Below are positions 290 to 8,184 of a stretch of DNA of 64,000 bases, piece by piece. Location: assembly GCA_964016885.1 (NCBI GenBank), contig OZ024762.1, positions 806,001 to 870,000 of the forward strand, read 5' to 3'. Each line of letters opens with the position of its first letter. Position 1 is the first letter of the stretch. Origin of the DNA: Eledone cirrhosa (lineage: Eukaryota). Both the position numbers and the translations under genes were made by a program. The notes under the pieces were generated by a model. That model did not search any database, was not told the origin of the DNA, and saw only the letters and a list, made by a program, of their open reading frames with translations.

Positions 290-2953
290 TTAAACAGCGG
301 GATTTGAACTCAGAATGACAAGGGCCGTAGCTCTGCATCAAAGCATGGCGTCCGACCCTCTACCGATACTGCCAATCCACCGCCATGTAAATAATAATAA
401 AACTAAGAGAGATTTAGTAGTGACACACCTGAATACCATCTTGTATAATGTTAACCTTTTGTTTTGAAAAAAACAACTTAATTCTTATATATAAAGAGGT
501 ATTTGTAACTGATATAGGAAAATTGAAACTAATATAGCTGGTGGTGGTGGGGGGTAGTGTTGATGATGGCGGTGGTGGGGGTGGAAGTGTTGATGATGGT
601 GGTGGTGGTAGAGGTAATTGTAGTGGTGATGGTAGAGATAGTAATGATGATGATGATGGTGGTGGTGGGGTGGTAGTAGTGGTGATGATGGAGGTAATAG
701 CAGTGGTAGTAGTATTAGTAGCAATGTAGTATTGGTGGTAGTATTAGTAAGAGTAAAGGGCAAAAGTAAAGTTGTGCAATAGAAGAAATGAAAGTGGTGT
801 GGTGGTGTTTGGAATGGTGCCAAGAGATGCGAGTCTGTAGAACGGAGGGGAAAACAGACACAACAAGTATTTAGCTACAAGAGCAAGTAATTATCTTATA
901 TTTCTTATTCTGATTAGCTAGAGAGAGAGAATGTGAGAGTTGTCATCATTTAAGGTCCATTTTCTCAGCATGGGATAGAGAATATCTTTGGTAAAGAAGT
1001 TATTGTCTTTGTATGTGTGGAGAACTGGACATTGGTCATTGTTTCACATCCAGTTTCTCTACTGACCACTGTAGGCTAGCCATTGACCAAGTCAGTATTG
1101 GTCATATGCTGACCACTGTAGGATGGGTTGTTGTCATTGACCAGCTCAAAAAAACTGTTTGATGGGCATTTTTCTCTTTTTGAGGGTCAGTTGAAAATGT
1201 TTCCCAAATGTTTTAGTAAGGGATCCAATCCCATCTTGAAAAATGTGAAATGAAGTGTCTTGCCTAAGACCACATGATATCCAGTCGAGGTATTGAACCC
1301 ATGACCTAACGACTACGAAGCCAACACCCTAACCACTGGATCGCGCACCTTCATATAAATATAAAAAGGCAAAACTTCTACAATGGCAGTGCCCCCAACA
1401 TGGCCTCAGAACAGCAGTGCCCCAGCATGGCCACCACCCTGTCAGCTAGAACTATTTAAAAAAATATTAAAATAGAATTCCATAAATGTGTTCTCATGTT
1501 TGGAATGTGAAACAACAAGTGAATGACATTTGAATTGATGGCAGGTTTATATATTGTTTGAAATGAGCAGCAGCAGCTTACAATAGACTGCTTTAAGTTG
1601 TAGATGGTTCTAGATGGCTACAGTTTGGTTACTACTGCTGTCTTGGTGGTGGTGGGGGTGGCATATTTTGAAGATAGTAGCACCAACAAGATAAGCTGAG
1701 AAATACAAAGAACTAAAACTCTAGATATAATAGATAGAAGTACCATATGACAGCAAAAGTACCTGTTATTACTGGCTCTTACTGTCATGGAGGTAATGGC
1801 CGTGAAATATATGTATATACACTAGGTCCGAACACCCACTGTCACTGCCCCCATCTCTCATATACACCAGATCCAAACACAAAGGAACCAAACTCCCACT
1901 GTCTTTGTCTCCATCTCTCACTATATTAAGCAAATGTGGTCTCATGCGCTGGCTGGCCCCGGGCGAACAGAATAGAGAAGGTGTTCACCCAGCGGATGGT
2001 GAGGGAGATGTGTTAGAAGAGACATTCCAGCTCTCGAGGTTTACACCTGCGGGTAACCAACTCTGTGTTGGTGGTGGTGAGTAGGGAGGTGGTCCTAAGA
2101 CCAAGGATAGCAGAAGTCTCCACTGCTATGAGCTCGACTTCAAACCTGTGAGAGAGCGACTAATGTTTACTGTTCAACTTGTTTGTATTTCTAGTGATAT
2201 GCACCGGGTCGGTTGCCCAAGGCCTCGACAGCCGGCAACCTAACGTGTCCCCAGACCTCATACAGCTGACTTCCTAATGCTAGCAGCCTGTCTGAGGAAG
2301 GAGCTATGCGAGGTGTACTGTGGTGGCTGTTGCGGCAGATATCGCTGGCGTCCATGAGGTACAGCCAAAACACCAATCTAACTCAGGTGTAGAGTCTGTC
2401 ACGCTCTCCAATAATCCTTGCCTCTTTCCCTCCCATCTGTAGCATTTAACAAAGTCAGAGATGATTCTGCATGAATAAAACATCTGGCCTGGCCTGTCTC
2501 ACAGTGGGACAACTCATCTAACCCATGCTAGCATGGAAAACTGGACGTTAAACGCTGATGGTGACGATGAACGCCCTAACCACAAGGCCACATGACTTCA
2601 GCAGTACTATTAAACCAACCAGCAGGAGTAGACCTACAGCAAGATGGTTGGATAACATCCATGAGCTTGGCTGGCCTCATTTGGGAATCCAGCCAGGTCA
2701 GTTGGAGACACGCTGGAAGGAGTATTTGAGGACTCTACTCCCACAACCCTCTCAGGAATAAGTGGGCAAAGAAGAAGGTTAAACATAGGTAGTGTCTTTC
2801 ATTAGAAATATGGTAATGAAAGGGTTAATGACATAGACAGGGTCTTTCATTAGAAATATGGTAATGAAAGGGTTAAAGTTTGTCAAATAATAACTCTAAT
2901 TAAATGTGTATTTTTTTTCTTTTCAGTTCTTTGGTGAAGTTGGTCATACATTT

Positions 2954-3004
2954 ATGGAGTTTGTTACCAATAGTGGAGATTTCTGCCAGGCGCAGCACGT
3001 GTAA
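2954..3004 (+). promoter_or_regulatory. Upstream ORF (MEFVTNSGDFCQAQHV*) in the PRL/PTP4A 5'UTR
   Basis: ATG 2954, TAA 3002-3004, 27 nt downstream of a strong acceptor (ttttttttcttttcag|2927). The DFCQAQH motif resembles the vertebrate PTP4A1/2 uORF peptide as I recall it. Confidence 0.75.
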
Positions 3005-3449
3005 TAGTGGTGTTTGTACTGTGTATCAACCGAAGTGAACTTCCGAGAGGAGAAAAAAAAGAAAAAAAAGACGACTGGAGACAGTTTTTAGCCTGTTGCG
3101 TGATCACGTAAAGTTTGCTGTTGTAGTGTTTGTGGTTGAAGAGTTCTTGGATGGCGACAACTTGTGTTTTCAACATACTTGCTTCTCTTCTTTGTTTTAC
3201 CTGGATTACTGCAGTGGATGTACCGCTGGATAGCAGCTAGCTGGGGTGCGTACCCAACTGTAGGTCCTTAACCACTACTAGGTGCTGCTTAGATACCAAT
3301 TTAAGGTGCTCCTACAGACCCACCTGTTCTTGTATTTTCGGTGGAGCTCACCTCAGTAAACACACCTTATTTGGCAGGATTACAGAGCTCTCTGCTCTAA
3401 TATTTAATTTTTCTTATTGTCAATTTCATACATCGACCAAACTGTAACC

Positions 3450-3560
3450 ATGCGAGCCACTAGAGCCATTAAACCAGAACCTGCTGAAATTTCTCACAAA
3501 CATATGAAGTTTCTGATAATGGATCGGCCAACTGATGGCACCTTAGATAAATTCGTTGAA
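3450..3560 (+). CDS. PTP4A: PRL/PTP4A phosphatase coding exon 1 (exon probably starts at 2927 with a ~520-nt 5'UTR)
   Basis: accATG; MRATRAIKPEPAEISHKHMKFLIMDRPTDGTLDKFVE then GTAAGA donor, phase 0; typical PRL N-terminus. Confidence 0.95.
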
Positions 3561-4434: not shown

Positions 4435-4865
4435 TTAGCCTCAGGTCAGCTCTCGTTAGTCACAAGTCAGTTTTCATTAGCTTCAGGTCAGCTGTTATTT
4501 AAACCTATGGCTTTAGCCTCAGGTCAGCTGTCATTAGGTTGACCTAGGACTTTAGCCTCAGGTCAGTTGTCATTAGGTTGACCCTGTGACTTTAGCCTCA
4601 GGTCTGTTGTCATTAGGTTGACCCTGTGACTTTAGCCTCAGGTCAATTGTCATTAGGTTGACCCTGTGACTTTAGCCTCAGATCAGTTGTCATTAGGTTG
4701 ACCCTGTGACTTTAGCCTCAGATCAGTTGTCATTAGGTTACCCTGTGGCTTTAGCCTCAGGTCAATTGTCATTAGGTTGACCCTGTGACTTTAGCCTCAG
4801 ATCAGTTGTCATTAGGTTGACCCTGTGACTTTAGCCACAGGTCAGCTCTCATTCAGTAGACCTAT
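4435..4865. repeat. 40-bp minisatellite
   Basis: tgactttagcctcaggtcagttgtcattaggttgaccctg. Confidence 0.9.
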
Positions 4866-5288
4866 GGCCAAAAATTGTTTCGGCCATGATCATTGTTTTC
4901 ATATAAACATTGGAGAGTGGTTTGTGTTTAGAGAACACGGAATCATGTGGGTGCAAAGTAAATATTTTTCACCACATGACTGGCTTAATGCCTTTCATAC
5001 CAACCCAGTACACCATGTAATGGGTGCATTTTATCATGGCCTCAACACAACCTCTTTACAGAGTGCATGGTATCATATCTAATGTAGCTACATGGGTCTG
5101 TTTATCATGTCTAATGTAACTACATGGGTCTGTTTATCATGTCTAATGTAACTACATGGGTCTGTTTATCAACATCAATGTAACTACGTTTCTGTTTATC
5201 TACTATAGCTACATGGTTCTATATTTAATGTAGCTACATGTTTCTATTTATCAACATCAATCTACAATTTATTTTAACTCTGTTTCAG

Positions 5289-5381
5289 GAACTGAAATCT
5301 CGTGGTGCCAAAGACGTGGTTAGAGTCTGCGAACCTACCTATTCCACAGAGAAATTAAATTCAGAAGGTATCAAGGTGTAT
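5289..5381 (+). CDS. PTP4A: PRL/PTP4A coding exon 2
   Basis: tttcag|ELKSRGAKDVVRVCEPTYSTEKLNSEGIKVY|gtaagt; 93 nt; includes the regulatory Cys (VRVCE). Confidence 0.97.
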
Positions 5382-6004: not shown

Positions 6005-6135
6005 GACTGGAAATTTGATGATGGGAGCCACCCACCTACCCATGTCATTGATGATTGGTTAAATCTTTTAAAAGCACGTTTCAGAGAAGATCCTGGCTGC
6101 TGCGTTGCTGTACACTGTGTAGCTGGACTTGGAAG
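6005..6135 (+). CDS. PTP4A: PRL/PTP4A coding exon 3 (catalytic)
   Basis: acag|[43 protein letters not shown](R)|gtaggg; 131 nt; PRL P-loop HCVAGLGR. Confidence 0.97.
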
Positions 6136-6781: not shown

Positions 6782-7135
6782 TAACCCTTTAGCATTTACA
6801 TTACTCTATATATACTATTGTATTTTCACAGTAAAGGCTTTACCTCACATAATATCTTACATAACATTTACATTACTCTATATATACTATTGTATTTTCA
6901 CAGTAAAGGCTTTACCTCACATAATATCTTACATAACATTTACATTACTCTATATATACTATTGTATTTTTGTGGTATGGGCTTTACCTTACCTTACCTA
7001 ATATCAAATCTACAAGATTTTGATATTATTTATTTTGAGAACAATACCTTAACATCAGTATACGTGGCTGGTTTGAACAGGAAGGAGTGAGATAATTCTA
7101 GCTGGATATGGCCAGTATAAACGCTAAAGGGTTAA
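6782..7135 (+). mobile_element. piggyBac-like MITE (TTAA-CCCTTT...AAAGGG-TTAA) with an internal tandem repeat
   Basis: TTAA flanks and TIR cccttt(a)gc(a/g)ttta; family copies at 10073-10239, 25735-25925, 34668-34892(-) and 35722-37787(-, interrupted). Confidence 0.75.
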
Positions 7136-8075: not shown

Positions 8076-8184
8076 TAAGCGGAGAGGTGCTATCAATGCA
8101 AAACAGCTGCAATGGTTGGAGCATTACCGTCCAAAGTCTCGCTTAAAGATGAAGAATTCTCACAAACGGTGCTGCATCAACTGA
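8076..8184 (+). CDS. PTP4A: PRL/PTP4A last coding exon (polybasic region + CaaX CCIN); full protein 172 aa
   Basis: tttgtag|(T)KRRGAINAKQLQWLEHYRPKSRLKMKNSHKRCCIN*; exon lengths sum to 519 nt. Confidence 0.97.

Follow-up and report, generated by a model that had tools for sequence, protein, structure and literature searches.

The closest described system is the conserved-peptide upstream open reading frame (uORF) of human PTP4A1, a PRL gene (Crowe 2006, Hardy 2019). Papers marked "in excerpt" are represented here by part of their text. In human cells, reporter output increased when the PTP4A1 uORF was frameshifted (PMC7530721, in excerpt), and a review states that rearrangement of its sequence abolished Mg2+ sensitivity (PMC11855589, in excerpt). 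According to the same review, the human Mg2+ response needs AMPK/mTORC2 and is abolished by AMPK inhibition; this requirement suggests that the peptide may be a brake and not the sensor. The leader of PRL-2 was found to report Mg2+ specifically among the cations tested (PMC10083557, in excerpt), and the binding of PRL to CNNM is said to be conserved in evolution (PMC10040874, in excerpt). In human leaders, a release of the repression at low Mg2+ has been demonstrated (PMC11855589 and PMC10083557, in excerpt). The PTP4A uORF has been followed from human to fish by uPEPperoni (PMC3914846, in excerpt), and the excerpted ESUCA study, whose Fig. 2a shows how widely the PTP4A1 uORF occurs among taxa, included Lophotrochozoa, Cnidaria and other groups in its scoring. 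No report of an invertebrate PRL uORF was found in the literature searched, and the ESUCA range data may already record it. The string 'CQAQH' retrieved no paper on PRL by title. Term searches gave no match in the available text of a Drosophila uORF paper (PMC2276209) or of a Tribolium small-ORF paper with its six supplements, and no discussion of this uORF, reference list aside, in the excerpts of PMC10040874 and PMC8728433. The vertebrate element is already known; its multi-exon anatomy and minimal core are what is corrected and added here. To our knowledge, few peptide-conserved uORFs appear to be common to vertebrates and protostomes.

In the present study, we analysed a stretch of 64,000 nucleotides from Eledone cirrhosa (assembly GCA_964016885.1, contig OZ024762.1, forward strand, 806,001 to 870,000), referred to below as the window. 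The following features were recognized in it:

2905..2926, + strand: pyrimidine tract and AG splice acceptor (AG at 2925-2926), phase 0
2927..3004, + strand: exon-2 part of the uORF, 25 codons FFGEVGHTFMEFVTNSGDFCQAQHV and then TAA
2954..3004, + strand: 16-aa ORF with the invariant internal AUG and the C-terminal core
3005..3449, + strand: spacer to the PRL start, 445 nt, with two more small ORFs
3450..3560, + strand: PRL (PTP4A) coding exon 1, start context ACC-ATG-C
5289..5381, + strand: PRL coding exon 2, with AG and GT ends
6005..6135, + strand: PRL coding exon 3, with the WKFDDG loop and the start of the HCVAGLGR P-loop
7207..7281, + strand: PRL coding exon 4
8076..8184, + strand: PRL coding exon 5, closing with TGA after a CaaX-type box (CCIN)

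The five GT-AG exons encode a PRL of 172 aa, of which 167-168 residues are identical to the PRLs of Octopus sinensis, O. bimaculoides and Argonauta. The encoded protein has an HCxxGxxR P-loop, a WxFDDG loop and a C-terminal CaaX box, which we take to be features of PRL phosphatases. The best solved-structure matches of its close relative P0001 were PTP4A2/1/3, and a CNNM-family gene is present in the E. cirrhosa genome. A sequence-only reading of the window had placed a uORF about 450 nt upstream of PRL; the distance is 445 nt from its stop to the PRL ATG at 3450 and 496 nt from ATG to ATG. The acceptor ending at 2926 and the ATG at 2954, 27 nt downstream, were both named in that reading and can be read directly in the sequence. 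The uORF exon was single-copy in the 3.0-Gb genome searched. The two spacer ORFs start at ATG 3151 (29 aa) and ATG 3218 (17 aa). Against 37 loci (36 from the metagenome scan described below, plus L059), no spacer ORF conservation was found below E 0.56 (blastn) or below E 0.1 (tblastx). The spacer also contains a 10-nt palindrome, CGTGATCACG, at 3096-3109, and a 14-nt exact match of this region in L058 (E 0.56) is likely due to chance. Tandem arrays with units of ~30-80 nt, estimated by eye, occur in the PRL introns at 1-290, 4440-4860, 5080-5250 and 6790-6970 and are likely ordinary satellites.

Comparison with the human peptide indicated that the octopod element is almost certainly the orthologue of the conserved-peptide uORF of PTP4A1/2. 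The human sequence was taken from two sources, P0157 and row NM_003463_1 of the Crowe 2006 supplement, which give the same 44 residues. Over the exon-2 part, the window and the human PTP4A1 uORF were identical at 17/24 residues without a gap. The 15-residue human core was matched here at 11/15 positions, and nowhere else in the region (264 kb, six frames) did a 15-mer reach more than 7. This alignment had been proposed beforehand, and it revealed homology in register. A phmmer search of 1.84 billion proteins, with the stop-to-stop frame 2900-3001 as the query, returned 34 hits at E<=1e-3, and the motif was present in all 34 (33 by pattern and one as CLAQH). As the sequence-only reading had proposed, vertebrate peptides contain D(F/Y)CQAQH; in human PTP4A1 and in fish PTP4A2-type peptides, the motif keeps its register relative to the shared Met. 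The mollusc peptide is indeed shorter at its C-terminus, with one residue after the His versus six in vertebrates.

The ORF at 2954-3004 comprises 16 codons and translates as MEFVTNSGDFCQAQHV followed by a stop. The sequence-only reading took ATG 2954 as its start. The 16-aa ORF is real and orthologous to the human PTP4A1 uORF, but it is the C-terminal core of a longer predicted uORF: the nine codons at 2927-2953 are also conserved, and the frame runs on upstream through the phase-0 acceptor. This acceptor coincides with the 5' edge of peptide conservation (2927), and its position relative to the peptide is shared with other animals, the AG adjoining the first codon in 29/33 loci examined. The four exceptions were three spliced mRNA-like contigs and L054, which reads GG. 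The uORF is predicted to consist of two exons, optionally three, and of 31 or 58 codons. Its additional parts lie upstream of the window:

G000:C23:782565-782582 (L004:6565-6582): first AUG and five further codons, at the end of the likely first exon
G000:C23:800016-800096 (L002:4016-4096): 81-nt stop-free exon, phase 0-0, likely an alternative cassette

The first AUG is located 26.3 kb upstream of the uORF exon in a weak context (TCA-ATG-T), and the first-exon donor is GTAAGT in phase 0. The hexapeptide encoded at C23:782565 matched the start of Sepia P0002 at 6/6 residues, while the next best among 7 candidates in 203 kb matched at 2. The same hexapeptide opens scallop P0124, and Pomacea P0074 agrees with it at 5/6. 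The residues of the cassette exon were identical to Sepia P0002 at 21/27 and to Argonauta P0126 at 20/27 (74-78%). Spliced to 2927, the first exon would yield 31 codons, and inclusion of the cassette would yield 58. We infer this joining from the splice signals, from gene models of three other molluscs and from the spliced contigs L022 and L024, intronless sequences of other animals in which the equivalent junction is present. Splicing within the PRL uORF may be a recurrent control.

Several side observations concern the upstream region. A promoter-like cluster precedes the first exon at L004:5900-5990 (G000:C23:781900-781990) and comprises TCACGTGA, GTGACGTCAT and GGCGGCCATGTT, which are presumably E-box, CRE and YY1-like, respectively. 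Downstream of this cluster, four short ATG ORFs precede the conserved first AUG. Inserts separating the first AUG from the core were seen in L034 (43 nt, frame-shifting; L034:49-110) and in scallop model P0124 (about 35 codons); ahead of the core, L025 has differing upstream sequence with an in-frame stop (L025:150-201).

Among the 120 PRL models listed, three (Sepia P0002, Pomacea P0074 and Leuciscus P0016) fuse the peptide to PRL, as do a few further vertebrate models, and the segment might on this basis be regarded as an alternative N-terminal coding exon of PRL. However, the junction differs in each of the three fused models: it precedes PRL coding exon 1 in one, falls within this exon in another and follows it in the third. 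The uORF is out of frame with PRL and terminates 445 nt short of it, a stop just past the core is retained in 31/32 sequences, and in the intronless mRNA-like contigs L022, L024, L025, L028 and L034 the stop is present and PRL forms an ORF of its own. A coding exon is thus scarcely credible, and the PRL-fused database models are likely mis-joined prediction errors. In the databases, the peptide appears either fused to PRL or as a separate hypothetical protein in P0002, P0074, P0016, P0124, P0126, P0129, P0183, P0211 and P0216.

Selection on the uORF was evaluated in 20 distinct DNA sequences over 24 codons. Identity at codon positions 1, 2 and 3 was 0.87, 0.84 and 0.54, respectively (column-shuffle p 1e-5), the uORF frame was free of stops in 20/20 sequences, and identity in the flanks fell to ~0.3. 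The pN/pS, an uncorrected pooled count on related sequences and not a tree-based estimate, was 0.18 in the uORF frame versus 1.5-3.3 in four other frames and 0.34 antisense (15/20 with stops). Pairwise values with the window ranged from 0.06 to 0.31 in 19/19 comparisons. ESUCA uses Ka/Ks < 0.5 as its criterion for amino-acid selection. The dN/dS check that had been suggested thus pointed to selection on the peptide at the amino-acid level. The set omits 14 of 37 loci (L045, three with core indels and ten of the short type), and four duplicates were merged; eight distinct short-type loci were analysed apart. Synonymous sites were also fixed: the Cys codon was TGC in 32/32 sequences (background 24/40), the His codon was CAC in 31/32 (background 13/23), and 21/22 Glu codons were GAG. 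These fixed sites suggest that part of the constraint acts on nucleotides, and the CAC fixation may avoid an out-of-frame ATG before G.

The fixed codons, together with a splice acceptor that is the exact start of the conserved block, could also be accommodated by a conserved RNA element, such as a fold that binds Mg2+ or a site recognized by a protein or splicing factor, in which the reading frame would be incidental. The strong three-base periodicity and the uninterrupted frame argue against it, and the CAC bias has the explanation given above. RNAalifold found 4 pairs only (-1.8 kcal/mol) with 0 compensatory changes, the single-sequence fold gave z = -0.76, and no Rfam match was obtained at E<=1. 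We regard an RNA element as very improbable. A structured cis-regulatory RNA or riboswitch was likewise rejected, as neither a covarying fold nor an Rfam family was found.

The internal AUG (TTT-ATG-G in the window) had U at -3 together with G at +4 in 32/32 distinct sequences, including those in which the codon preceding it was Phe, Tyr, Cys or TGA. The first AUG was preceded by TCA in 5/5 sequences (window, L022, L024, L034 and human). AUG 2954 is likely a second, leaky start. In 8/32 sequences an in-frame TGA directly precedes the internal AUG, which is the sole start in this TGA-ATG lineage. Upstream of the TGA-type starts, eight codons gained 9 extra amino-acid states, compared with 2 in the 15 core codons. 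This drift of the upstream codons while the core holds suggests that 16 residues are the natural minimal form. The stop was located 1-6 residues past the His in 31/32 sequences and 14 residues past it in one. Loci L047-L050, L052 and L054-L058 represent one animal lineage with the TGA-ATG stop-start; in the seven examined, a further ATG in frame with PRL occurs ~160-190 nt past the uORF stop.

Products of the MIEF1 and MKKS uORFs have been reported to work in trans (PMC7530721, in excerpt), and the PRL peptide might similarly be conserved as a trans-acting microprotein, with repression of PRL as a side effect. Selection at the amino-acid level would suit such a role, as would the cephalopod cassette exon, which keeps its frame and 74-78% identity, and the human peptide has its own entries (RefSeq LOC128125822, UniProt A0A3F2YNX1). 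On the other hand, the N-terminus appears disposable, the TGA before the internal AUG leaving 16 residues in a quarter of the sequences (8/32). The fixed feature is the distance from core to stop, as in arrest peptides, and no Pfam family matched the peptide. We consider a microprotein quite improbable, and a cis-acting peptide remains the preferred reading.

To describe the distribution of the uORF, protein databases and metagenomes were examined. Named mollusc orthologues came from Sepia, Argonauta, Pomacea, Elysia and Mizuhopecten (cephalopods, gastropods and a bivalve), and named vertebrate orthologues came from mammals, birds, alligator, amphibians, teleosts and a shark. Of 112 pattern hits in the metagenome scan, 37 passed; 36 of these were short ORFs of the PRL-uORF type and one was a chance hit. 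A PRL coding sequence was found downstream in 26/37 loci. Ten non-chance loci had none, nine of them with 296-1195 nt past the stop, which is likely too little; the tenth, L032, matches L031 over only 318 nt. By peptide likeness, L031-L033 are of the vertebrate PTP4A1 type and L051/L053 of the fish PTP4A2 type. The PRL of L028 falls in a 90% cluster with that of the annelid Dimorphilus. The PRL exon of L040 scored best against fly PRL-1 (30.6 against 24.4 bits), and the PRL of L024 did so only narrowly (227 against 225), which suggests arthropod contigs, weakly so for L024. A scan of prokaryote genomes, used as a negative control, gave 52 pattern hits, of which 2 passed (one chance hit and one eukaryotic DNA). 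L045 and L060 were dropped as chance hits, since both lie inside a long ORF resembling that of P0223, whose Pfam accessions we take to be gyrase-type and intein-type. With orthologues in molluscs, an annelid and vertebrates, the proposed origin before the protostome-deuterostome split held up, and on sequence evidence the element predates the divergence of vertebrates and molluscs. The Drosophila PRL-1 leader has a conserved 42-codon ORF that lacks the motif (Mackowiak 2015, supplement file 13, row 277), and the motif was absent from the available parts of supplements 10, 11, 12 and 13 of that study. Judging from this fly leader, some lineages may be able to do without the element.

Two divergent loci, L044 and L059, carry a variant of the peptide (one extra residue and a CGDWC core) ahead of intron-split PRLs. 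These PRLs were 42-57% identical to all others and 67% identical to each other, and they formed a 100/100 clade in an unrooted tree built with neither an outgroup nor a non-bilaterian reference. L059 is eukaryotic DNA filed in a bacterial MAG, on an animal-type contig of 2.8 Mb whose part G001:C19:1-200000 was examined. This part contains PRL and cathepsin B, both intron-split, along with TRIM-NHL, kelch, subtilase and ILEI-repeat genes; we presume the mix of the latter four to be demosponge-like. Nitrospirales are common sponge symbionts. Silicatein was not found on the L059 contig, where cathepsin B was the sole papain-family gene found, and COX1 was not found in a search for phylum markers of L059 and L044. 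Separately, PRL exons 3-4 are partly duplicated on the L059 contig (C19:71193-71598). The two loci hint at a pre-bilaterian origin of the uORF, and a fast-evolving bilaterian may instead be their source. A broader proposal, which we put forward tentatively and consider rather doubtful, is that the PRL uORF predates Bilateria and serves across animals as a nascent-peptide Mg2+ switch, with a minimal unit of 16 residues from the internal AUG and with two weak AUGs and lineage-specific cassette exons tuning the strength of the brake.

The alignments show common descent of the peptide, the intron position and the place in front of PRL. By analogy with the human uORF, our main reading is that the octopod uORF restrains PRL translation in a sequence-dependent way, a brake likely released at low Mg2+ or low energy, with a probability of roughly 0.7. 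Taken separately, sequence-dependent repression of PRL is highly probable, and a Mg2+ response in molluscs is somewhat favoured. Some scanning ribosomes would initiate at the exon-1 AUG (31 codons, or 58 with the cassette) or at AUG 2954 (16 codons), and others would leak past. The translating ribosome would then pause at or near the stop while the core occupies the exit tunnel, and the paused ribosome would block, queue or dislodge leaked scanning subunits, so that little PRL is made. Low Mg2+, directly or via ATP loss and AMPK/mTORC2, would cut initiation at the uORF or shorten the pause; PRL would then rise, bind CNNM and help to restore Mg2+. All four steps are transferred from human reporter work and general models. 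Two weak AUGs and a conserved core adjacent to the stop fit leaky initiation with C-terminal pausing. In the modelled mechanism, queues or collisions form behind a paused ribosome; the data of the study concerned favour 40S dissociation over queuing (PMC9648851, in excerpt). The best Mg2+ reporter data are those for PRL-2, whose uORF type, seen here in fish only, is less like the octopod one in its N-terminal half.

The main rival to a Mg2+-released brake is control by stress or energy state, in which the uORF would still repress through its conserved peptide but would originally have answered to general stress or energy state, the Mg2+ response being indirect or a vertebrate addition. PTP4A1 mRNA resists eIF2 repression, and its leader confers this resistance on a reporter (PMC4383229, in excerpt). 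The loss of the Mg2+ response on AMPK inhibition (PMC11855589, in excerpt) points the same way, and two weak AUGs would be in keeping with control through the level of ternary complex or the stringency of start-codon selection. Set against this are the Mg2+ specificity of the PRL-2 leader reporter (PMC10083557, in excerpt), the conservation of PRL-CNNM binding (PMC10040874, in excerpt) and the presence of CNNM in this genome. We judge this alternative to be unlikely, and the brake released at low Mg2+ or energy is retained as the main reading.

The occurrence in molluscs, an annelid and likely arthropods would date a uORF on the PRL mRNA to at least the bilaterian ancestor, and control of the PRL-CNNM Mg2+ axis by this uORF is likely of the same age, at least. 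The comparison also reduces the 44-aa human peptide to a short list for testing: the invariant M, S/C-G, C, A, Q and H with a stop 1-6 residues later, the natural minimal form of 16 residues, a U at position -3 of each AUG, and the fixed TGC and CAC codons. The response of the ribosome to Mg2+ on PRL mRNA thereby becomes directly testable by mutagenesis and cryo-EM.

Compared with the human PTP4A1 uORF, the Eledone element occupies the leader of the orthologous gene, and the register from the internal Met is exact. The register from the TCA-ATG start (human Met8) agrees within one codon, as does the intron point, which was deduced from genomic versus spliced vertebrate translations. Vertebrate spacers measured 350-540 nt at three loci, versus 445 nt in Eledone. 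The human uORF differs in having an extra upstream AUG (44 aa) and six residues after the His versus one here, and in lacking the cephalopod 81-nt in-frame cassette exon; its function has been demonstrated in human cells only. The fish PTP4A2-type uORF (P0016, most of P0212-P0221, L051 and L053) shares the internal Met and the core G(D/E)FCQAQH, whose F is also that of the window, but its N-terminal half has diverged and six residues follow the His. AZIN1, AMD1 and the fungal arginine attenuator are metabolite-sensing arrest-peptide uORFs, and they combine a weak start context with a conserved motif adjacent to the stop, as the PRL uORF does. We know of no sequence relation between the PRL uORF and these arrest-peptide uORFs or CMV UL4. 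The CMV UL4 uORF2 likewise has a weak start context and a conserved C-terminal motif by the stop (PMC9648851, in excerpt). TRPM7, with its Mg2+-sensitive uORFs, is also a uORF-controlled gene of Mg2+ homeostasis, but a different gene (PMC11855589, in excerpt).
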